Assembly (NCBI GenBank): GCA_965198005.1
Contig: CBDAOI010000004.1
Location: 1,632,001 to 1,696,000, forward strand
Length of the DNA: 64,000 nt
Direction: 5' to 3'
DNA from: Spirochaetia bacterium
Lineage (GTDB): Bacteria; Spirochaetota; Spirochaetia; SZUA-6; Bin103
The first letter of the stretch is position 1. The number at the start of each line of letters is the position of its first letter. The position numbers and the translations under genes are program-made. The notes beneath the pieces were generated by a model. The model was not told the DNA's origin. It ran no database searches and was given only the letters and a program-made list of their open reading frames with translations. This document shows positions 17,375 through 51,469 of this stretch, one piece after another.

Positions 17375-19156
17375 TCAGAATCCCATTTCTTTCTTCAGGG
17401 CACTATCAATCCAGAGACGGGAGAAGATCACTTCCTCGCCCCCGCTTGATATCAGTTCACCGTTATAGCCTATGAGCCACGGCTGGTTCACCGAAAACTG
17501 TGGAAGCAAAGGACCATATATCGTCCAGTATTGCTCTAATGCGTACATGACCAAGTCTGGCACCAGCCTGTTCCGCTCCTCGACGGTGGTCGCGGCTGCG
17601 GCTGCGGCATGCATGGCGTCATAAGTCGGGTCGTTGACGCTGCTATTTACACCATCCGTGGTAAACCCACTCATGATTGACACTGCCCACTGCATGGAAA
17701 CAGCATACGCCGTATCGTTACTGGCCATTTCGTATTCCTGAGCTTTTCTTCTGGGGCCCCATGCAGCGTTTGGCGTTACTTCAACCTCCACATCAACGCC
17801 AATCTTCTTCCAGTATGAAGCGGCTAATTCCGCATAGTTTAGATCGAAACGCTCAAGGTGCATCAACACGGTCTTGAATCTAGTGCCGTCCGCGCCGCGA
17901 GGATACCCGGCAGCATCAAGCAACGCTTCGGCCCCTTCCGGGTTATACGTGCGGCCCTTCTGGAGCTCCTCGGGCCACTCTTCAAATGGGGTGGAACCGT
18001 CTGTCATGAAACGGCCCAGCCGCCCTTGAGGCATCGGATCTGAGAAACCCTTGAAGTACGAATTGTCAATGGTTTCGAAGTCCAGTGCCATGTTCATTGC
18101 CTTGCGCACCCTGATGTCGTCAAAGGGTTCTATCTGAGTGTTCATTGCAAAACCATTGTCCGATCGAAACCGTACCGGCCACAATTCGACGTCGGGGTTG
18201 GTCCGCTGGATGCTCTCTACCTGCTCGATAGTCCGGAGTTGAGCTACCCCGGCCACACCCACGTAATCCACCTTACCCGTGCGCATTGCCGCCAGTTGTG
18301 TTGCCACTTCGGGCATAATCAGAGCCCTTAACGTGTCAACATATGGCAAACGGTTTTCCGGGTATTTTTCGTCGTAGCCCCAGTAGCCAGGATTCTTGGT
18401 ATAGGTGATGGAGCTGCCCTCGGTCCAGTCAGTCAGCTCAAAAGGACCGGTGCCGACCAGGTTGCTCCAAGCCGTTACGTCCCCGTGTTCCTTGATCACC
18501 TCGGGGGGGTACATGACAGCAAGGGAGTCGTCGAGGATAACCATCAGCGTAAGGAGATTTGGCTCCTTCAGCTTGAAAACCACCGTCCATTTGTCGGTGG
18601 CCGTTATGGATTCGAATGACACCCCAGTCAAAACACTATAAGCAGCGCTAGGTTCGGTGAAGCCGCTGCCCAGACCCAGAGTACGGTGAAAGTTATATAC
18701 GACATCGTCGGCAGTCAGCTCCCGACCGTTCATTGGTGCCTTATCGTGCCAGTGAACGCCCTGGCGGACTTTGACGACAACTGTTTTGTCGTCGGGCATT
18801 TCCCAGCTCTCCGCCAGAGCCCCCCTCGTGTACTTTGGAGCGGCCATGGTCGGGAAGTTATATTCGTCCCTGGGCGTTGCCCAGTCGCCGATGCCTAGCT
18901 TCTCTACGACCAGGCCCACGGCCACGACACCCCCACTCAAATGTTTGTCAGTATGCGAGGGCGATTCTTTCTTGACGTAGGTTATTGTCCCGCCATACTC
19001 CGGCGCGGTCACCATCTTGCCGGTGGTCGGGTCGGTCACCATTTCCTTCTCCATCGCCGCGGCCGGCTCCTCCTCCGAGGCAGCCGCCCAGAGGCCGGTG
19101 GCGGTCAGTGCGAGGCCACACAGCACGGCGAGCGAAATGCGCATTACGAAATGCAT
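17375..19156 (-). CDS. ABC transporter substrate-binding protein, family 5
   Basis: Signal peptide, PEYGG, LAESWE, VGTGPF, PFDDIRVRKA. Confidence 0.93.
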   Translation of the reverse strand: MHFVMRISLAVLCGLALTATGLWAAASEEEPAAAMEKEMVTDPTTGKMVTAPEYGGTITYVKKESPSHTDKHLSGGVVAVGLVVEKLGIGDWATPRDEYNFPTMAAPKYTRGALAESWEMPDDKTVVVKVRQGVHWHDKAPMNGRELTADDVVYNFHRTLGLGSGFTEPSAAYSVLTGVSFESITATDKWTVVFKLKEPNLLTLMVILDDSLAVMYPPEVIKEHGDVTAWSNLVGTGPFELTDWTEGSSITYTKNPGYWGYDEKYPENRLPYVDTLRALIMPEVATQLAAMRTGKVDYVGVAGVAQLRTIEQVESIQRTNPDVELWPVRFRSDNGFAMNTQIEPFDDIRVRKAMNMALDFETIDNSYFKGFSDPMPQGRLGRFMTDGSTPFEEWPEELQKGRTYNPEGAEALLDAAGYPRGADGTRFKTVLMHLERFDLNYAELAASYWKKIGVDVEVEVTPNAAWGPRRKAQEYEMASNDTAYAVSMQWAVSIMSGFTTDGVNSSVNDPTYDAMHAAAAAATTVEERNRLVPDLVMYALEQYWTIYGPLLPQFSVNQPWLIGYNGELISSGGEEVIFSRLWIDSALKKEMGF

Positions 19157-19172
19157 CAGATAACTCCTGTTG

Positions 19173-19260
19173 CTCGAGAGTACTGAATCGACTGCCGGCC
19201 CCTCGCCTACTCTCGAGTTATGCCTGCTTCAACGCCGGCGAGCACAAGCGAGGGCGACAG
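19173..19260 (-). promoter_or_regulatory. Conserved two-helix RNA element upstream of the SBP Shine-Dalgarno (copy 1)
   Basis: Helix B CTCGAGAGTA/TACTCTCGAG; helix A CTGTCG-CCCTCGCTT pairs with AGGCGAGGG-CGGCAG; homologs at 35851 and 47623. Confidence 0.7.
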
Positions 19261-19313: not shown

Positions 19314-19340
19314 TTAGTCGTAACCGGTCTTGGGTGCCAT
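19314..19340 (-). CDS. Putative leader peptide MAPKTGYD
   Basis: AAGGAGG SD upstream; homologous to MTPKTGYD at 35780 with synonymous codon changes. Confidence 0.6.
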   Translation of the reverse strand: MAPKTGYD

Positions 19341-19739
19341 CCCATCCTCCTTTGACGTGCGCGCACCACCGGCCGTTCGGATCGCGTCGGGACCTGCGTC
19401 CCAGCGTCCACGCGGCTGGCGAGGCGAGTTGGATTGGATTGGCCGGCGACGCCGGCGGTAGAGTTGATAAGTGGGTTGATGAGGCCCGGTACGCCGGTCT
19501 CGGCGCTGAACGGACACCGCGTGAGGCGCCGGATGGGTTAGCTGTGTTGGGGGGGGGGGACTCCTCACCATTAAGCAAGCGCGCCGCGAGCTGATTTTCA
19601 GCAAATCTCGGCGCGCGGCTGTCAGGGGAACAGAGTGTCATAAGCGTTGACGTGTTATAAGTCACTCAAGCCCTCCGCAGGTGAGGCACAGCCATACCCA
19701 GATGTAGTCGCGATGTCGCGATTGACTGGATCCCACCCT

Positions 19740-20224: not shown

Positions 20225-22140
20225 GAGCGCCAGGCTAACTGGCATATGACAGAGGGTGAAAGTCCCTCGGAACGAAGGAGCAGCCAATCCACGTTTCTCC
20301 GCGAGCCGTGCGTTGGCACCTGCGAGGGTGCAGGCGAAGCGTCGGCAGCGGTGCGTGCGGGCAGAGTTATGGAGCGCCGCAAAATACGACATCTGGAGTG
20401 CCGAGACTCTGTACTCGGTCGAAGGCAACACCGGTCGAGCCAGTATGGTGAGGATCGACCGGGCTCCACGGCGTCGAAGAACTCAGGCACGTGCGTACGT
20501 CATATACCGGGACCTGGGAGGTCTTCGGGTCGTCCCGGCGAGTCGTCGCCGGGACCGCGGAGGGAAGGCGTGAGGCTGGACCAAAGATGAACGACCCGAA
20601 GGAGTCGGACATGGGCATAGTAGCGGCGAAGCCGGCGAACAAGGGAGCGCAAGCGACTGCGGAGACGGTGGAGCGAAGGCCCATGACCAACGGGAATTCG
20701 CAAGGTCAAAGCACGGGCCGGACGCAGAGTCGGGCAACCGTGACACAGGCGGCCGAGCGGATACGGCAATTCGTAAAGAGAGAACCGCAGGAGAAACTCA
20801 CTGCGCTGCTGCACCACGTGACGCCGGAAGCGCTGCGGGTGGCCTATTACGCGCTGAAGCGTGAAGCGGCCCCGGGGGTGGACGGGATGACGTGGCGGGA
20901 GTACGAGACGGGGTTGGAAGTGCGCTTGCACGACCTGCACCGGCGAGTACACACAGGAGCGTACCGAGCGACCCCGGTACGGCGGGTCAACATCGACAAG
21001 CCGGACGGAGGCACACGACCGCTGGGGGTGGCCGCGCTGGAGGACAAGATCGTCCAGAAGGCCGTGGTGGATGTGATCCTGACACCGATCTATGAGGAGG
21101 AATTTCTCGGGATCAGCTATGGGTTTCGACCGGGGCGCGGGGCACACGATGCGTTGGACGCACTGGCCTACGCCATCGAACGGCGCGAAGTGAACTGGAT
21201 ATTGGACGCGGACATTCGCGCCTACTTCGACACGATCTCGCGGGACTGGTTGATCAGATTCCTGGAGCATCGGATTGGAGATCGGCGGGTGCTGCGGCTG
21301 ATAAAGAAGTGGCTGCGCGCTGGGGTACTGGAAGAAGGCCGACAGATCGACGCGGGGCGGGGTACAGCGCAAGGGTCGGTGATTTCACCGATGCTCGCGA
21401 ATATATACTTGCACTACGTGTTGGACCTGTGGGTCACCAAGAAGTGGCGGCCGCAGGAGGCGCGCGGAGACATGATCATAGTGCGCTACGCAGATGACTA
21501 TGTCGCCGGGTTCGAGCATCGTGACGATGCGGAACGCTTCCTGCGGGAACTGAAGGAGCGATTCAGAGGCTTCGAGCTGGAACTGAACGCCGACAAGACC
21601 CGACTCCTCGAGTTTGGACGGTATGCCGAAAGGAACCGCCGAGCACGTGGGGAAGGGCGACCGGAGACGTTCGACTTTCTGGGTTTCACGCATTATTGCA
21701 GGAAGGACAGGAAAGGACGCTTCGGGCTGGGGCGGAAGCCAATTCGGAAGCGGATGAATCGTACGCTGAAGAGGATCAAGATCGAGCTCCGCAGACGAAT
21801 GCATGATGACGTGATGGAAACCGGGCGCTGGCTGGGACGGGTACTGCGCGGATGGCTCAACTACTACGCGGTACCCACCAGCTACCGCTATCTGCACCGA
21901 TTCGTGTGGCGTCTGCGAGGAATCTGGGTAAAGATTCTACGCCGGAGGTCCCAGAAGGACCGATTCTCCTGGGCTTGGATGCTGGCGATCAGCATCAAGC
22001 TGTGGCCCCAACCCCGAATCGTACACTCATGGCCGGACCGGCGATTTGCCGTCAACCACCGAAGGTAGGAGCCGGATGGTTTAACGACCACGTCCGGATC
22101 TGTGCGGGGGGCGCCGGGTAACCGGCGTTCCTACCGCGCC
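20225..22140 (+). mobile_element. Group II intron, full length, probably bacterial class E-like
   Basis: RT ORF; D5 GAGCCGGATG..CGTCCGGATC at about 22069; D6 ending CCTACCGCGCC; EBS1 GTACTC (20411-16) pairs with IBS1 GGGTAC (20219-24); boundaries agree with the empty-site homolog at 22560. Confidence 0.9.
20587..22068 (+). CDS. ltrA: Group II intron reverse transcriptase/maturase, no endonuclease domain
   Basis: AAPGVDG, RPLGVAALEDKIVQ, GTAQG..ISPMLANIYLH, VRYADD, FDFLGF, maturase GWLNYY. Confidence 0.93.
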   Translation: MNDPKESDMGIVAAKPANKGAQATAETVERRPMTNGNSQGQSTGRTQSRATVTQAAERIRQFVKREPQEKLTALLHHVTPEALRVAYYALKREAAPGVDGMTWREYETGLEVRLHDLHRRVHTGAYRATPVRRVNIDKPDGGTRPLGVAALEDKIVQKAVVDVILTPIYEEEFLGISYGFRPGRGAHDALDALAYAIERREVNWILDADIRAYFDTISRDWLIRFLEHRIGDRRVLRLIKKWLRAGVLEEGRQIDAGRGTAQGSVISPMLANIYLHYVLDLWVTKKWRPQEARGDMIIVRYADDYVAGFEHRDDAERFLRELKERFRGFELELNADKTRLLEFGRYAERNRRARGEGRPETFDFLGFTHYCRKDRKGRFGLGRKPIRKRMNRTLKRIKIELRRRMHDDVMETGRWLGRVLRGWLNYYAVPTSYRYLHRFVWRLRGIWVKILRRRSQKDRFSWAWMLAISIKLWPQPRIVHSWPDRRFAVNHRR

Positions 22141-35495: not shown

Positions 35496-35779
35496 TTTTC
35501 GTACAACAGAGCAACCGAGAACAACTAACCGCTCCGGCTGATCGCTCCGTGCGCGTCCCCGCGCACGCCGTCGCCTTCACCACGACGCCTGCGCCCACGG
35601 CGGCAGCCAGCCGTGGCGCCGGCTCGTGCGATCGCCGACCGAGCCAGCGCAGCGACGTCGTCACCTTCACAGCCCGCCACCGCCCGGCGCCGGCCTTGCC
35701 GACCACTCGGACTCGCTGCCTCGCCGACCGACACAGGCGTGGGGTGCCACGCCTGTCCACGCATACAAGGAGGCACGGG

Positions 35780-35806
35780 ATGACACCCAAGACGGGATAC
35801 GACTAA
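35780..35806 (+). CDS. Putative leader peptide MTPKTGYD
   Basis: AAGGAGG SD; conserved with 19314-19340. Confidence 0.6.
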   Translation: MTPKTGYD

Positions 35807-35850: not shown

Positions 35851-35905
35851 TGTCGCCCTTGCTTTCGAGAGTAGGCGAGGGGTCGGCAGTGGAATCGGTA
35901 CTCTC
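35851..35905 (+). promoter_or_regulatory. Conserved two-helix RNA element (copy 2)
   Basis: GAGAGTA/TACTCTC; TGTCG-CCCTTGCTT pairs with AGGCGAGGG-CGGCA. Confidence 0.7.
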
Positions 35906-35932: not shown

Positions 35933-37717
35933 ATGAGTAATCTGTTCAAAACATGCGTCGCCGTAGTGTTCGGTCTCGTGCTGATCGCCATCGGCGTCGG
36001 GGCAAGCCCGGCCGGGGAAGAGGAGCCGGCCGCGGCGATGGAGAAGGAGATGGTGCTCGACCCCACCACCGGCAAGATGGTGTCGGCGCCGGAGTATGGC
36101 GGCACATTCACCTGGGGCGATGCCACCGGGGCTCCGCACTGTGACCCTCACATCCATGGCTGGGGGCCACGGGCCATCGACGGCGTTGCAGAGAGGCTAG
36201 GCATCAGGGACTGGGCAGCAGATAGGAACGAAATCAGCTTTTCAGACTCTTATACTCCTCTCCGTTTCGTGAGAGGGGCGCTGGCGGAAAGCTGGGAGAT
36301 GATCGACTCACTGACGTATGTCTACCACATCCGCAAGGGCGTTCGCTGGCACGACAAAGCGCCGATGAATGGTCGGGAGTTCACTGCCCAGGATGTCGTA
36401 TACAACTTTCACCGTTATACGGGTTCGGGCAGCGGCTTCACCGAACCTAGCGCCGCTGCTGGCACACTCGCTTCGATACCACTCGAATCGATAACCGCCA
36501 GCGACGATTCGACGGTTGTCTTCAAGCTGACGCAGCCAAAGGTAGACTTGCTGGATGTCCTTGCCATCGACTGGAGTGCCGCTATGTTACCCCCAGAGGT
36601 AATCGAGCAATACGGCGACCTGACGGACTGCGACAACATGGTCGGTACCGGGCCCTATATGCTGACAGAATGGGTCGATAACACGTCTATGACGTATTCC
36701 AAGAATCCTGACTACTGGGGCTTTGACGAAAAATATCCGGAGAACCGCTTGCCCTACATCGACCAGATAAACCGGCTAATCATGCCGGAAAAGGAAACAC
36801 AGCTGGCGGCGCTACGCTCGGGTAGGCTCGATTACATCGGTCAGTCCGGCGGGGGTCAGTTACAAGTGGCCCAGGTGGAGAACCTACAGCGGACCAACCC
36901 CGAAATCGTTTTATACCCGTGGGCCTTTCGGTCGGAGACCTCTGTTGCATTCAACCTGCGCCACCCGTCGCCCTTTCAAGACATCAGGGTTCGCAAGGCG
37001 ATGCAGATGGCCATTGATCTGGAGACCATCAACAATACTTACTTTCGTGGCTTTGCAATGACGAAACCCCAAGGAATCATAGGAGACGGTCTGAAGGGGT
37101 ACTACATCCCATTCGAAGAGTGGCCCGAAGAGACCAGGAAAGTCTTTGCGTATGACCCGGAAGGGGCCGAAGCGTTGCTTGATGAGGCTGGGTATCCGCG
37201 CGGTGCGGATGGCATTCGATTCAAGACCGTCCTGAACCCCGTGCCCTCGTGGGATGTGGGTTATCAAGAAATAGCCGCTGAATACTGGGCTGCGATTGGC
37301 GTTGACGTAGAGGTTAAGATAACTGAAGTCGCTCAACTGATGGCGCTGGTAACTGAAGGTACTTATGAAGGGATGGCCTATATGGATATCGGCAATGACG
37401 GCTCGATTCAATGGCTGATGAGTGTTCTTCAAATCGGAGCGCAATGGGGCCGCACAGGACATCAGGACCCGGTGATGGACGCCAAGGCAAAAGCCGCTAT
37501 GGCCGCTACCAGGCTCGAGGAGCAGCAGCGGCTGGTGGCGGAGGCAGATATGTACTCGATCCAGCAGCATTGGTTCATATGGGGTCCTAAAGTTCCCCAA
37601 TTTGAGGCGGTGCAGCCGTGGGTGATAGGTTTTAACGGTGAAATCTGGTATACTACACATGCGCCTTTCGAGCGCCTGTGGATCGATAGTGCGCTGAAGA
37701 GCGAAATGGGTTTCTGA
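35933..37717 (+). CDS. ABC transporter substrate-binding protein, family 5
   Basis: Signal peptide, EEEPAAAMEKEMV, PEYGG, LAESWE, VGTGPY. Confidence 0.93.
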   Translation: MSNLFKTCVAVVFGLVLIAIGVGASPAGEEEPAAAMEKEMVLDPTTGKMVSAPEYGGTFTWGDATGAPHCDPHIHGWGPRAIDGVAERLGIRDWAADRNEISFSDSYTPLRFVRGALAESWEMIDSLTYVYHIRKGVRWHDKAPMNGREFTAQDVVYNFHRYTGSGSGFTEPSAAAGTLASIPLESITASDDSTVVFKLTQPKVDLLDVLAIDWSAAMLPPEVIEQYGDLTDCDNMVGTGPYMLTEWVDNTSMTYSKNPDYWGFDEKYPENRLPYIDQINRLIMPEKETQLAALRSGRLDYIGQSGGGQLQVAQVENLQRTNPEIVLYPWAFRSETSVAFNLRHPSPFQDIRVRKAMQMAIDLETINNTYFRGFAMTKPQGIIGDGLKGYYIPFEEWPEETRKVFAYDPEGAEALLDEAGYPRGADGIRFKTVLNPVPSWDVGYQEIAAEYWAAIGVDVEVKITEVAQLMALVTEGTYEGMAYMDIGNDGSIQWLMSVLQIGAQWGRTGHQDPVMDAKAKAAMAATRLEEQQRLVAEADMYSIQQHWFIWGPKVPQFEAVQPWVIGFNGEIWYTTHAPFERLWIDSALKSEMGF

Positions 37718-47248: not shown

Positions 47249-47622
47249 CCCTGGGTGGCGAGGTTCGCCGAGCGTGATCCGCCACGAGCCGGGCGCCTGG
47301 GGTTGGGGTGACCGGGGGTGACCACCGAGTCGTTTGACAGGGTGGCCGCGTCCATGCTAGCGTGCCTCGCCTTGGGGTTTGACGGATCGGTGATGAAGCG
47401 CCATGATGACAGTCAGCGCGGTGACCGGTTGGCGGTGACGCAGGGTATCGCGCGTTGCCTATACTCACACCCCAATGGGGTCACACCGGCCATGGTGTCG
47501 CCCCGGGCGGCCGGTGCTTGCAGTCGTACAAGGAGGAGCCGCACCCGGATGTAGAGCCTGACCGTATACGGATAGAGCGGGATCAAGCCCGAGCGGCCCC
47601 GCGCCGACTCGGCAACTCCAGC

Positions 47623-47708
47623 CTGCCGCCCTTCGCTTTCGGGTCGCCTGCAATGCAGCCAGACCTCGGGAGTAGGCGAAGGACCGGCAGTGGCCTCAGT
47701 ACTCCCGA
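47623..47708 (+). promoter_or_regulatory. Conserved two-helix RNA element (copy 3)
   Basis: TCGGGAGTA/TACTCCCGA and CTGCCG-CCTTCGCTT/AGGCGAAGG-CGGCAG, with compensatory changes relative to copies 1 and 2. Confidence 0.72.
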
Positions 47709-47727
47709 ACAATAGGAGACCTACATC

Positions 47728-49542
47728 ATGAGTAGCGGAATGACCAAAACGTGCCTCGCGGTGCTGTTCGGTCTCGCCTTGGCCGTGACCGGCCTCTGGG
47801 CGGCTGCCGCCGAAGAGGAGCCGGCCGCGGCGATGGAGAAGGAGATGGTGCTCGACCCCACCACCGGAGAGATGGTGAGCGCGCCGGAGTACGGCGGGAC
47901 CATCACCAGTCTGTTCCATCCCGGCTGGCAGACCGAGCATGCCGACATGTGGCACTACCGCAGTGTCATCCACCCCACCAAGATCGTCTTGGAGAGAATG
48001 GGTGGCGGTGACTGGGGACTGCCCAGAGACGAATTCGCCTTCGCCGGTGCCATCCCGAATCTACCTCAATACACCGGCAAGCTGGCCGAGAGCTGGGAAC
48101 AGCCCGACGCCACGACGATTGTTCTCAACATCCGCAAGGGGGTGAAGTGGCACGACAAGGAACCGATGAACGGCCGCGAGCTGGTCGCCGACGACGTCGT
48201 GTTCAACTTCAGTCGCAATCTGGGGCTGGGCGAGTTTGCCGCGGATGGACCGAGCCCGGTGATCAGCGTGCTGGGGACGCTGCCGGTCGAATCGATCACG
48301 GCAACCGACAGCCATACGGTCGTGATCACGTTGCAGCAACCGATGCTCGCCGCGCTGTACCACATCATCGCCGACATCTACGGCAATCAGTACCCGCCCG
48401 AAGTGATCAGGCAGGACGGCGACGCCAAGGATTGGAACAAGCTGGTAGGCACCGGGCCGTTCATGTTGACCGACAGGGTGGAAGACGTTGCCCTGACCTA
48501 TACCAAGAACCCGGACTATTGGGGCTTTGACGAGAAGTTTCCGGACAACCGCCTGCCCTATGTCGACGAGTTCAGGGGCGTGATCATGCCGGACGAATCG
48601 ACGCGCCTGGCGGCGCTGCGCTCGGGCCAGCTCGACGTGCTGGGTGGTCCCGCCGCGTATGCGCTCTCACCCGGCCCCTCGACCGAGGGCCTGGCGCGCA
48701 CCAACGCGGAGCTCAAACAGTTTGCGTACCAGAATCGCAGCCAGAATTCCGCCGCCTTCAACCTGAAAGCGCCGCCCTTCGACGACGTTCGGGTGCGTAG
48801 GGCGATCCAGATGGCCCTCGACCTGGAGACGGTAGCGGCCACCTACTTCAAGGGCTATGCAGATCCCACACCTCGCGGCGTGGTCGGCATCGCCAACACC
48901 GGGTACGCGTTCCCGGTTGCGGAGTGGTCCGACGAACTCAAGGGTTACTACAGCTATGACCCGGCAGGAGCAGAGGCGCTCCTCGATGAGGCGGGATATC
49001 CGCGCGGCGCCGACGGCGTCAGATTCCAGACCATATTCAACGCCCATCCCAGCCCAGCGGCAACCGATCAGGGCTTTGTCGCGATAATGATCCAGTTTTG
49101 GGATGCGATCGGCGTCGACGTGGACCTCTTGGTCGCGGATGGCGCGGCCTTCGGCCCGATGATCCAGAATGCCGACTACGAAGGGATACTCTGGTTCATT
49201 ACCGGCTGGAACAGGCCGCTTCCGGTGACCACCATCGGCTGGCAGGCCACGGGTGCGTACAACAACGCCACCGGACACAGCGTGGAGGAGTATGACGCGA
49301 TGATCGCCGCCGTGGGCGCGGCGACGACGGTCGAGGAGGAACGGCAGTTGATCCTGGAGGCGGATCGGTACCTGATCGAGAATCACCTGTACCTGTGGGG
49401 TCCGATCATGCCGCAGGTTGCGGTGACGCAGCCGTGGATCGTCGGCTACAACGGCGAAAACAATCTGGGCGACGTCGACAGCTACACGATCTTTGCTCGC
49501 CTGTGGATCGACCACCAGATGAAGGAGTCGATGGGGCACTAG
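47728..49542 (+). CDS. ABC transporter substrate-binding protein, family 5
   Basis: Same N-terminal signature and family-5 motifs as the other SBPs. Confidence 0.93.
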   Translation: MSSGMTKTCLAVLFGLALAVTGLWAAAAEEEPAAAMEKEMVLDPTTGEMVSAPEYGGTITSLFHPGWQTEHADMWHYRSVIHPTKIVLERMGGGDWGLPRDEFAFAGAIPNLPQYTGKLAESWEQPDATTIVLNIRKGVKWHDKEPMNGRELVADDVVFNFSRNLGLGEFAADGPSPVISVLGTLPVESITATDSHTVVITLQQPMLAALYHIIADIYGNQYPPEVIRQDGDAKDWNKLVGTGPFMLTDRVEDVALTYTKNPDYWGFDEKFPDNRLPYVDEFRGVIMPDESTRLAALRSGQLDVLGGPAAYALSPGPSTEGLARTNAELKQFAYQNRSQNSAAFNLKAPPFDDVRVRRAIQMALDLETVAATYFKGYADPTPRGVVGIANTGYAFPVAEWSDELKGYYSYDPAGAEALLDEAGYPRGADGVRFQTIFNAHPSPAATDQGFVAIMIQFWDAIGVDVDLLVADGAAFGPMIQNADYEGILWFITGWNRPLPVTTIGWQATGAYNNATGHSVEEYDAMIAAVGAATTVEEERQLILEADRYLIENHLYLWGPIMPQVAVTQPWIVGYNGENNLGDVDSYTIFARLWIDHQMKESMGH

Positions 49543-49611: not shown

Positions 49612-50571
49612 ATGAGAGCGTACATCATCCGGCGGGTGCTGCTCGTCATCCCCACGCTGTTCATCCTGAGCGTCTTCGTCTTCCTCTCGGTGCGCTTCCT
49701 GCCCGGCGACGCGATCGACGTCATGCTGGACAAGGCCGGCTGGATCGGCGCGGCCAACGTGGACCGGGCGGCGCTCGAGCAGATGCTCGGACTGGACCTG
49801 CCCGCCTACGTGCAGTACGGACGCTGGATCGGCGGCATCGTGCTGCGCGGCACGCTGGGCGAGTCGCTGTGGGGCGGCGAGGCCATCGAGAGCAAGATCA
49901 TCGAGCGCCTGCCGGTGACGCTGGAGCTTGGCGTTCTGGCGATCGTGATCGGGGTGCTGATCGCCGTGCCGGTGGGCATCTATTCGGCGATGCGCCAGGA
50001 CACGGTCGGCGACTACGCCGGACGGACGATCGCCGTGATCGGCCTGGCCACGCCCAACTTCTGGCTCGGAGTGATGGTGATGCTGTACCCGGTGATCTGG
50101 TGGGGCTGGTCGCCATCGATCGAGTTGATCCGCTTCACCGACGACCCGCTGGGCAACCTGGGCATGTTCCTGGTGCCGAGCGCTATTCTCGGCACCGCGA
50201 TGGCGGCCAGCACCATGCGCATGACGCGCACCATGATGCTGGAGGTGCTGCGCCAGGATTACATCCGCACCGCCTGGGCCAAGGGGCTGAGCGAGCGGCT
50301 GGTCGTGGTCAGGCACGCCGTGAAGAACGCGTTCATTCCGGTGGTGACCCTGATCGGCCTGCAGCTCCCGATCCTGGTAGGCGGCTCGGTGATCATGGAG
50401 AACATCTTCGTCCTGCCGGGGTTGGGGCGGGTGCTGCTGACGGCCCTTACGGACCGCGACTATCCGGTCGTCATGGGAGTGAACCTGTCCTTCGGTGCGA
50501 TGGTGCTGGGGGTGAACCTGCTGATCGACCTGCTCTATCCCTACCTGGACCCGCGGGTCCGCTACCGCTAA
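49612..50571 (+). CDS. ABC permease (DppB-like)
   Basis: MRAYIIRR, DYIRTAWAKGL. Confidence 0.93.
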   Translation: MRAYIIRRVLLVIPTLFILSVFVFLSVRFLPGDAIDVMLDKAGWIGAANVDRAALEQMLGLDLPAYVQYGRWIGGIVLRGTLGESLWGGEAIESKIIERLPVTLELGVLAIVIGVLIAVPVGIYSAMRQDTVGDYAGRTIAVIGLATPNFWLGVMVMLYPVIWWGWSPSIELIRFTDDPLGNLGMFLVPSAILGTAMAASTMRMTRTMMLEVLRQDYIRTAWAKGLSERLVVVRHAVKNAFIPVVTLIGLQLPILVGGSVIMENIFVLPGLGRVLLTALTDRDYPVVMGVNLSFGAMVLGVNLLIDLLYPYLDPRVRYR

Positions 50572-50581
50572 CGGGGAGCGA

Positions 50582-51469
50582 GTGAACGTGAGGAACGCTC
50601 CGCCAGCACCACACCACTGGCTGGTCGATCTCCTGGTCAGGTTGGTCAAGACCAAGCCGCTCGGAACCGCGTGCGGGATGGTCGTGCTGGCACTGATTCT
50701 GGTCAGTGTGTTCGCCGACGTGCTGGCGCCCTATCCGTACGACGAGATTCGCCTGATGGAGATTCTGGAAGGGCCATCGGCGCGGCACCTGCTGGGCACC
50801 GACAACGTGGGGCGGGACTTCCTGAGCCGCATCATCCACGGGGCGCGGGTGTCGCTGCTGGTCGGTCTGGCCGCCACCAGCATCAGTGTCGTGGTGGCCG
50901 TGCTGGTGGGCGGCGTCACCGGATTCCTGGGTGGCAAGCTGGACCTGGTGGTGCAGCGGTTCGTCGATGCCTGGATCGCCTTTCCGGGATTGCTCTTGCT
51001 GCTCACCCTGATGTCGGTCTTGGGCCGCGGTGTGCTGCAGATCATCCTGGTGCTCGGCATCTCGGGCGGCATCGGCAGCGGCTCACGGGTCGTGAGAAGT
51101 GCCGTGATCGCCATCAAGGAGAACGTCTACTTCGAGGCGGGAGCGGCGATCGGCTCCTCCAAGTGGCGTACGCTGATCCGCCACGTGCTGCCCAACATCG
51201 CGCCGCCGGTCATCATCATCTTCAGCATCAGCGTCGGCGGCTACATCCTGAGCGCGGCATCGCTGAGCTTCCTCGGTTTCGGCCTGCCGCCCGACGTCCC
51301 CGACTGGGGCGGCATGCTGAGCCGCGAGGGGCGCCAGTACATGGAGGCGGCGCCGCGGCTGGCGCTCTGGCCGGGCCTGTGCCTGACGCTGGTGGTGTAC
51401 AGCCTGAACATGTTCGGCGATGCCCTGCGCGACCTGCTCGACCCGCGGCTCAGGGGCGGCGGACGGTGA
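50582..51469 (+). CDS. ABC permease (DppC-like)
   Basis: LGTDNVGRD, HVLPN, SLSFLGFG. Confidence 0.93.
   Translation: MNVRNAPPAPHHWLVDLLVRLVKTKPLGTACGMVVLALILVSVFADVLAPYPYDEIRLMEILEGPSARHLLGTDNVGRDFLSRIIHGARVSLLVGLAATSISVVVAVLVGGVTGFLGGKLDLVVQRFVDAWIAFPGLLLLLTLMSVLGRGVLQIILVLGISGGIGSGSRVVRSAVIAIKENVYFEAGAAIGSSKWRTLIRHVLPNIAPPVIIIFSISVGGYILSAASLSFLGFGLPPDVPDWGGMLSREGRQYMEAAPRLALWPGLCLTLVVYSLNMFGDALRDLLDPRLRGGGR

Follow-up and report, generated by a model that had tools for sequence, protein, structure and literature searches.

Most genes of a very large SBP_bac_5 subfamily in this Spirochaetia genome are preceded by what looks like a real, undescribed control element: an RNA leader whose anatomy recurs from copy to copy, whose helices covary, whose place and orientation are fixed, and which RNA contigs show in continuity with the coding sequence. 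The evidence for the structure is good; how it works is something that we infer. Our leading interpretation, which we hold tentatively and as somewhat short of probable, is that the leader is a transcribed and selected RNA structure that may act in cis on translation initiation or message stability, and not via SD pairing.

Three copies of the element in the window

The element was initially annotated as an RNA switch of two helices, A and B, occurring three times in the window (the whole stretch of DNA analysed here, 64,000 nt). On rechecking the coordinates, the same element was found at all three sites, directly 5' of SBP genes. The arm order that had been described (A5'-B5'-A3'-B3') was correct, as were the compensatory changes in helix A (CCCTCGC/GCGAGGG versus CCTTCGC/GCGAAGG) and in helix B (GAGAGTA/TACTCTC versus GGGAGTA/TACTCCC). 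Helix A is hereafter P1 and helix B is PK; P2 is an optional hairpin in loop 1. The features of the three copies are as follows.

47623-47636, + strand: copy 3, 5' arm of P1 (CTGCCGCCCTTCGC), pairs with 47676-47690
47642-47665, + strand: copy 3, optional hairpin P2 in loop 1 (GGTC..CTGC-AAT-GCAG..GACC), present in the MFE fold
47666-47674, + strand: copy 3, 5' arm of PK (TCGGGAGTA), pairs with 47700-47708, with covariation
47676-47690, + strand: copy 3, 3' arm of P1 (GCGAAGG-AC-CGGCAG, with a 2-nt bulge), pairs with 47623-47636
47700-47708, + strand: copy 3, 3' arm of PK (TACTCCCGA), with covariation
47709-47730, + strand: copy 3, A/U-rich spacer, SD AGGAG (47714-47718) and ATG (47728)
47728-49542, + strand: SBP_bac_5 gene of copy 3, then two permease genes (49612-50571 and 50582-51469)
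47528-47554, + strand: copy 3, upstream SD-like box (ACAAGGAGG) and degenerate start-stop mini-ORF ATG TAG (47549-47554)
35851-35905, + strand: copy 2, minimal pseudoknot without P2 (P1 35851-35862 / 35875-35889; PK 35865-35873 / 35899-35905)
35765-35806, + strand: copy 2, ACAAGGAGG box and mini-ORF MTPKTGYD* (35780-35806)
35933-37717, + strand: SBP_bac_5 gene of copy 2 (ATG 35933), then two permease genes
19173-19260, - strand: copy 1, pseudoknot with P2 insert (P1 19260-19248 / 19206-19192; PK 19217-19208 / 19182-19173)
19314-19354, - strand: copy 1, CAAAGGAGG box and mini-ORF MAPKTGYD* (19340-19314)
17375-19156, - strand: SBP_bac_5 gene of copy 1 (ATG 19156)

In these copies the element ends approximately 20-30 nt 5' of the ATG. 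The three genes encode proteins of approximately 600 aa, all SBP_bac_5 (E 4e-67 to 7e-68), for which NCBIfam returned sub-threshold likeness only, to DppA, Opp and NikA-type binding proteins. Their operons comprise the SBP gene, two permease genes and then unrelated enzymes, with no ATPase gene after; a PhyH dioxygenase and an epimerase follow the permeases in the copy 3 operon, and DHDPS- and DapB-like genes follow in that of copy 1. In the closest paralogs of copy 3, the mini-ORF at the place of its degenerate ATG TAG reads MQILTVYG*.

The element had not been recognised as a known riboswitch, and this still holds against Rfam 15: at the gathering threshold the whole window yielded only a group II intron domain and two tRNAs, while copies 3 and 1 searched at E ≤ 10 gave noise only, to unrelated families (E 2.7 and 7.7). 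The intron hit covers domains D1-D4 (RF02005, 169.5 bits) at 20259-20483 (+), approximately 1 kb from the copy 1 leader, and the 525 aa ORF lying 3' of it (20491-22068, +) may be the intron-encoded protein.

Family size and placement in the genome

The home genome (G000; 4.89 Mb, 66% G+C) contains 32 occurrences of a 22-nt core at up to two mismatches, as opposed to none for the reversed control, which is more than chance. A covariance model of P1 and P2 built from 31 copies (R1, defining class 1) gave at least 74 matches at E ≤ 0.01 in this genome, 69 of these 74 lying directly 5' of an SBP ORF on the same strand in an automated test; by eye, three of the five misses either adjoin SBP genes whose starts are truncated or represent a remnant element. 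Among the SBP genes without an R1 match, a second, more uniform leader class of equal topology was found (class 2), and the corresponding model of P2 and PK enclosing P3 (R2) gave at least 80 matches, with 76 of the 80 directly 5' of an SBP ORF on the same strand. The element, which might have turned up independently of SBP 5' ends or orientation, does not do so. Together the two models mark at least 128 distinct sites. PF00496 has at least 133 matches in the same genome (133 of 226 candidates scored), and the element precedes 113 of the 139 family ORFs with an intact N-terminus (39 with R1 only, 74 with R2), leaving 26 without a match; these family counts are lower bounds, with 150 first-look candidates scored per search. 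Across the family the 3' end of the fold stands 14-36 nt 5' of the SBP_bac_5 start codon, and we propose to define the motif by this placement, the crossing of P1 and PK, and the core GAGAG/CUCUC, all of which were found.

Several loci depart from the simple arrangement of one leader and one gene. Tandem leaders, or a second element approximately 700 nt upstream, apparently duplicated, occur at G000:C4:381237-381443, C2:475709-476502 and C3:1033069-1033282, and tandem leader pairs were seen at three R2 sites. Frameshifted or truncated SBP genes stand behind intact leaders at G000:C2:761954, C4:580412, C4:2346210, C4:1126254 and C1:261222 (core positions) and could be either pseudogenes or homopolymer assembly errors; long C runs are present in leaders. 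Approximately 15 further SBP genes have a third type of leader, without GAGAGTA, in which nested hairpins (GCCGGAGTATCCGGC ... CACGGGTACCGGGACnnnGTCCCGATCCCGAAAACGAGGAGGAG) lie directly before a strong SD, for example near 71700, 79101 and 82883 on the - strand of G000:C1 and at 183270 and 194961 on the + strand of C4 (strand coordinates).

The paralogous proteins share a median identity of 47-49% and their coding DNA 0.59-0.62, whereas identity of the RNA element among paralogs is 0.70 in class 1 and 0.88 in class 2. The greater constancy of the RNA element than of the protein would fit purifying selection. One coding block (..EEEPAAAMEKEMV..) is near-identical in nucleotides among paralogs at 47818-47868, approximately 19060-19100 (-) and approximately 36020-36060 (+), and at 47818-47868 it coincides with a spike in RNA-contig depth of 273-568. 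As this adjoining N-terminal block is also near-identical, gene conversion of the 5' module may contribute to leader identity, and the leader and N-terminal module may have been homogenised together in this way.

Fold and covariation

The arms run in the order P1-5', (P2), PK-5', P1-3', loop, PK-3', an order that, as read from the sequence, defines an H-type pseudoknot. When 29 copies (27 distinct) are aligned with MAFFT, 89.1% of cells pair, compared to 38-46% for slid partners, and seven of the ten PK pairs change on both sides. An R1-guided alignment of class 1 (72 matches, 64 distinct, from G000 and six congeners) pairs at 87.3% against 28-51% slid, with changes on both sides in 19 of 30 pairs overall and in four of the seven P2 pairs. 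None of 500 shuffles reached the covariation score in either alignment, although related sequences can beat such shuffle controls without any structure. Because PK lies outside the R1 model, its covariation support is independent of the alignment method; the variants observed are GAGAGTA/TACTCTC, GAGAGTG/CACTCTC, GAGAGCA/TGCTCTC, GGGAGTA/TACTCCC and GAAAGCG/AGCTTTC. Class 2 (75 matches, 64 distinct) pairs at 94.5-94.6% against 32-51% slid with little variation, its copies being too uniform to prove much alone; its P1, which is outside the R2 model, changes from U-A to C-G in two sequences. The covariation claimed from three copies for both helices extends to alignments of 29, 72 and 75 sequences, in which P1, P2 and PK are all supported. 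Single-sequence folding energy, which is uninformative in this G+C-rich DNA, was not unusual in the three window copies (z -1.45, -0.33 and -0.81).

Class 2 leaders consist of CTGGC (5' arm of P1), the hairpin CGTCCGC-GTT-GCGGGC (P2), GAGAGTA (5' arm of PK), GCCAG (3' arm of P1), an extra hairpin GGAGCGG-CAAT-CCGCTCC (P3), a nearly invariant GCAA and TACTCTC (3' arm of PK). P1 is wholly different between the classes, with 13 bp in class 1 and 5 bp in class 2, whereas the PK core GAGAG/CUCUC is kept in both classes and in a sister-genus relative. The remaining parts are variable: P2 is absent from copy 2 and from a subgroup of approximately 65 nt, and other variants carry a hairpin between the PK 5' and P1 3' arms, so that hairpins occur in all three loops (P3 in the last), while P1 and PK persist everywhere. 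By eye, the two classes have no conserved unpaired nucleotides in common.

From general RNA geometry, loops of at least 4-5 nt across PK and of 9-10 nt across the bulged 13-bp P1 would appear sufficient for the crossing fold. Covariation cannot separate simultaneous from alternating formation of P1 and PK; since the two helices share no nucleotides, simultaneous folding is the simpler reading.

Transcription

In four metatranscriptome runs of a single study, labelled as sponge metagenome, 74-80% of the sampled words of 47300-49300 are present. Difference-free contigs span 47410-47762 in one run (X1) and 47410-47652, 47410-47707 and 47410-47650 in the other three, the X1 contig joining leader, pseudoknot and coding start. 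Across the four runs, RNA-contig depth is 14-22 over the leader and 15-25 over the CDS, compared with 0-3.5 over the upstream gene, a contrast that argues for RNA rather than DNA; being assembled contigs from one study, these data show neither strand, ends nor level, DNA carry-over is possible, and uncovered stretches upstream of the leader are not evidence.

Although each of the four runs has a locus-specific contig that starts at 47410, we rejected this position as a transcription start: it lies exactly 30 nt inside a stretch shared among paralogs (47382/47399-47439) and therefore reads as an assembly-graph break. A promoter-like TTGACG-17-CATGAT (9/12) at 47379-47407 (+), inside the shared high-depth stretch 47382-47439, is a lead only. 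A simple terminator scan saw no sense-strand terminator in the copy 3 leader or in a class 2 leader.

Upstream mini-ORFs and hairpin modules

In class 1 leaders a conserved CAAAGGAGG box precedes a tiny ORF that reads MQPKTGYD*, MAPKTGYD*, MTPRTGYD* or MKSPYD*, with the pattern M[QATP]P[KR]TGYD* and synonymous variation in the Gly and Thr codons. In some class 1 subgroups the mini-ORF is reduced to MQN*, VKL* or M* (start-stop), or has no start codon, and the class shows no overlap of the mini-ORF with a terminator hairpin of the kind an attenuator would have. Class 2 leaders encode MILKEP[H/Y/stop]ARAA* (e.g., L084, L136; G000:C4:111865-112051), the last codons of which form the 5' arm of a 13-pair G+C stem (96.5% paired) with the cap CCGGG-TGAA-CCCGG. 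The 3' arm of this stem is enclosed by a helix, TGAGTCA/TGACTCA, whose arms cross it and which shows a few compensatory changes, giving a second crossing-arm arrangement 5' of the pseudoknot that translation of the mini-ORF could open. As to attenuator features in class 2, the mini-ORF overlaps the G+C stem, the T-rich run that follows varies, and the simple scan saw no sense-strand terminator.

Distribution

Among ten same-genus genomes, R1 matches were found in six (57, 21, 31, 21, 8 and 6 matches) and R2 matches in seven (39, 29, 1, 59, 34, 4 and 1); overall, seven of the ten carry the element. R2 matched none of 13 sister-genus genomes and R1 matched only marginally, in four of the 13; both models found nothing in 17 genomes of other families of the order or in 150 other genomes sampled from the phylum, where absence means not found among the genomes searched, given that genomes are incomplete and the filters strict. 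Two congeners with complete genomes, G009 and G010, lack the element; they have 59 and 53 SBP_bac_5 matches and one subfamily member each, without a pseudoknot leader, while G007 has 26 subfamily members and 12 model matches.

The sister-genus relative is a single-copy leader, CACGAGAGCAGGCG...CGCCyCTCTCGAACGGGTGGAGGAATCCCATG, which keeps the GAGAG/CUCUC helix along with a CTGC-GCTT-GCAG hairpin (loci L046-L049 and L183, in genomes G013, G020, G019, G022 and G018). The marginal matches share a common start sequence, ATGACGAAC, approximately 9 nt downstream; two of the four loci open an ORF of at least 497 aa there, and the one tested (L047) is an SBP_bac_5 protein (E 1e-71), while the other two have no intact ORF in that frame. 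This leader is apparently a nested form and possibly ancestral. Apart from it, the loose pattern CGAGAG..CTCTCG..GGAG occurs in the sister genus at control level.

A scan of genome contigs returned 27 stretches, 24 of them in three Spirochaetia bacterium records. A genuine class 2 leader lies on a 4-kb contig labelled Acidobacteriota (JAPPFQ010000701.1) from a sponge-derived bin, and two stretches without the PK 3' arm were dismissed as chance matches. Scanning metagenome contigs with a degenerate form of the 22-nt core gave seven stretches, none confirmed by R1 or R2; in the best of these (L163, E 0.006, 20 bits), no SBP start was seen by eye.

Proposed mechanism and rival explanations

Across 59 leaders a median of 14 nt lies between the end of the PK 3' arm and the SD, and the spacer has a G+C content of 0.38-0.42 (class 1 mean 0.42) as against 0.66 for the genome. 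The last approximately 20 nt before the class 2 start can form a small hairpin, e.g., CATACG-GAGAAA-CGTATG, with the start codon in the stem and part of the SD in the loop; its CATAGG..CCTATG variants (A5 columns ~255-280) look compensatory, and it is missing in some subgroups.

We suggest that the pseudoknot was copied along with its gene as the SBP_bac_5 subfamily grew to more than 100 members. P1 and PK would form together as a compact cap ending approximately 14 nt before the SD, which would leave an A/U-rich, single-stranded landing pad for the ribosome, and the effect of the fold, in cis, would be on the initiation of translation or on how stable the SBP message is. The fold might keep a long G+C-rich leader and its upstream mini-ORFs away from the ribosome site or, alternatively, serve as a platform presented at the edge of the ribosome footprint, SD pairing presumably not being the means. 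Regulatory input would more likely arrive via the upstream mini-ORF and hairpin modules or via a trans-acting factor, for instance one that reads the GAGAG/CUCUC helix. Purely structural shielding does not explain why GAGAG/CUCUC is kept across both classes and the sister-genus relative.

The initial annotation had proposed that an open helix B frees its 3' arm (ACUCY) to pair with the GGAG of the SD and so block translation. ACUCU can indeed pair with GGAGU on paper, and partition-function folding puts the probability of this pairing above 0.5 in 6 of 59 leaders; however, the pairing is not predicted in the other 53 (mean probability over all 59, 0.11), the spacing between the PK 3' arm and the SD varies (14-36 nt separate the end of the arm from the start codon), and SD accessibility is unchanged by blocking both PK arms (predicted SD pairing of 0.51 unconstrained and 0.48 blocked, with the 59 leaders folded from P1 to start+30). 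The proposal finds no support in this analysis, and we consider such a switch very improbable. Still harder to credit, and the last explanation we would choose, is that the sequence does nothing as RNA and is a repeat at the DNA level, or a 5' cassette kept uniform by gene conversion. In favour of this are the copy number (at least 128 in 4.9 Mb), the occurrence of some leaders in tandem, and the greater likeness among paralogs of the leader and N-terminal coding block than of the rest of the gene. Against it, the element keeps a strict orientation and distance relative to SBP starts, three helices are preserved by compensatory changes, and only 5 of 74 R1 and 4 of 80 R2 matches fail the automated placement test. 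An intergenic repeat of the REP/MITE type was rejected on the same placement (69 of 74 and 76 of 80), the copies not being spread regardless of gene, distance and orientation.

Explanations that assign the fold a signal deserve more weight. A trans-acting protein or small RNA that reads either the GAGAG/CUCUC helix or the shape of the pseudoknot, and thereby turns the entire SBP regulon down or up, would account for the retention of the PK helix sequence in both classes, whose P1 helices wholly differ, and in the sister-genus relative. The fold ends 14-36 nt before the start codon, which by the footprint size of the 30S subunit on mRNA is near the edge of the stretch it covers; pseudoknot operators of ribosomal-protein mRNAs act through a bound regulator, and a fold shared by more than 100 operons with unrelated downstream enzymes suits a global signal. 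Against such a regulator, the two classes have no conserved single-stranded motif in common, and compensatory changes at the top of PK (UA, UG, CA, CG) show sequence tolerance there; on balance we think it unlikely, though worth keeping in view. The same grade attaches to a broader proposal, that the fold serves a new class of regulatory RNA as its sensing or docking part, with more than 100 operons under a single signal (a metabolite, a second messenger or a dedicated RNA-binding factor), and that it acts jointly with the tiny upstream ORFs, whose C-terminal residues (..TGYD-stop; MILKEP..RAA-stop) are conserved at the peptide level. Were it true, no larger cis-RNA regulon would be known from a single bacterial genome. 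A riboswitch, in which the pseudoknot is an aptamer stabilised by a small molecule reporting global state (a nutrient or second messenger), is a good deal less credible. An H-type pseudoknot in the 5' UTR near the SD is the design of several known classes, and strong covariation with no known family match is what a new one would show. Structured leaders before ABC binding-protein genes have also been proposed as candidates, e.g., the livJ motif in the passages of Narunsky et al. (2024; PMC11109978) that describe it. However, the large hairpin insertions in the loops, the lack of an expression platform overlapping the fold or of a sense-strand terminator-like site, and the confinement to one genus all speak against it. 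An aptamer specific for a substrate is unlikely, since classes 1 and 2 have no conserved unpaired nucleotides in common from which a pocket could be built and since operons differ in their downstream enzymes; the signal might instead be a global ligand or a trans-acting factor.

Whatever its mode of action, this is a leader without a catalogued relative that precedes approximately four-fifths of a giant transporter family expressed in sponge metatranscriptomes. If it controls expression, it would show by what means a sponge-associated lineage not yet in culture keeps a very large set of nutrient-uptake systems coordinated or tunes them one by one. Its natural variants, from minimal 55-nt forms to those with hairpins in each loop, are a ready mutational series for a pseudoknot beside the ribosome site. 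Should it prove a structural shield only, it would still clearly exemplify a leader that was amplified together with its gene family and has stayed more constant than the protein.

Comparison with known systems

The SAM-II, preQ1-II/III and guanidine-III riboswitches are likewise single H-type pseudoknots in the 5' UTR near the ribosome site, in which the SD is part of, or is masked by, the 3' strand of the pseudoknot and the loop nucleotides contacting the ligand are conserved. In the present element, by contrast, the SD is approximately 14 nt downstream, the loops vary or bear hairpins, and there is no covariance-model match. The rpsO/S15, alpha operon/S4 and T4 gene 32 operators, which are single-copy and autoregulatory with a known protein partner, also place a pseudoknot immediately 5' of the initiation region, where ours too could act at ribosome binding; their pseudoknots include the SD or start region, whereas the present fold leaves the SD out and recurs in more than 100 copies. 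Judged by the position of the SD, the element belongs to neither group: unlike in the riboswitches, the PK 3' strand neither contains nor masks it (median distance 14 nt; pairing probability above 0.5 in 6 of 59 leaders), and both SD and start are outside the fold in copies 1-3, unlike in an S15-type operator.

In Rhizobiales, the trans-acting small RNAs AbcR1 and AbcR2 pair near the SD of many ABC binding-protein mRNAs. Our system would resemble theirs in joint post-transcriptional control of many such mRNAs, if there is any, although AbcR has no shared cis pseudoknot. The strong SD-like box and tiny ORF upstream of the pseudoknot are reminiscent of the leader-peptide systems tna and pyrBI and of STAB-SD, the stabiliser of cryIIIA mRNA. 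That likeness concerns the upstream modules only, and here the mini-ORFs vary in length and sequence from class to class, and the start codon is missing in some copies.

The motif did not turn up in full-text searches of the literature or in passages of two motif catalogues, whose supplementary motif lists may include it. Nearest in kind, going by the passages that describe it, is the livJ motif, a strong riboswitch candidate before LIVBP-type ABC binding-protein genes, mostly in Streptomyces (Narunsky et al., 2024; PMC11109978). Both are structured 5' leaders recurring before genes for ABC periplasmic binding proteins and found by comparative analysis, the ligand being unidentified in livJ as described there (PMC11109978). 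Compared by description and not by sequence, the two differ in protein family and in phylum, and the prediction for livJ puts the SD within an internal bulge of its P1 (PMC11109978), whereas here it is outside the fold. We file the present element as a new RNA motif of a known general kind, the structured cis-acting mRNA leader, and one that is unusual in its copy number and in its co-amplification with a gene family.
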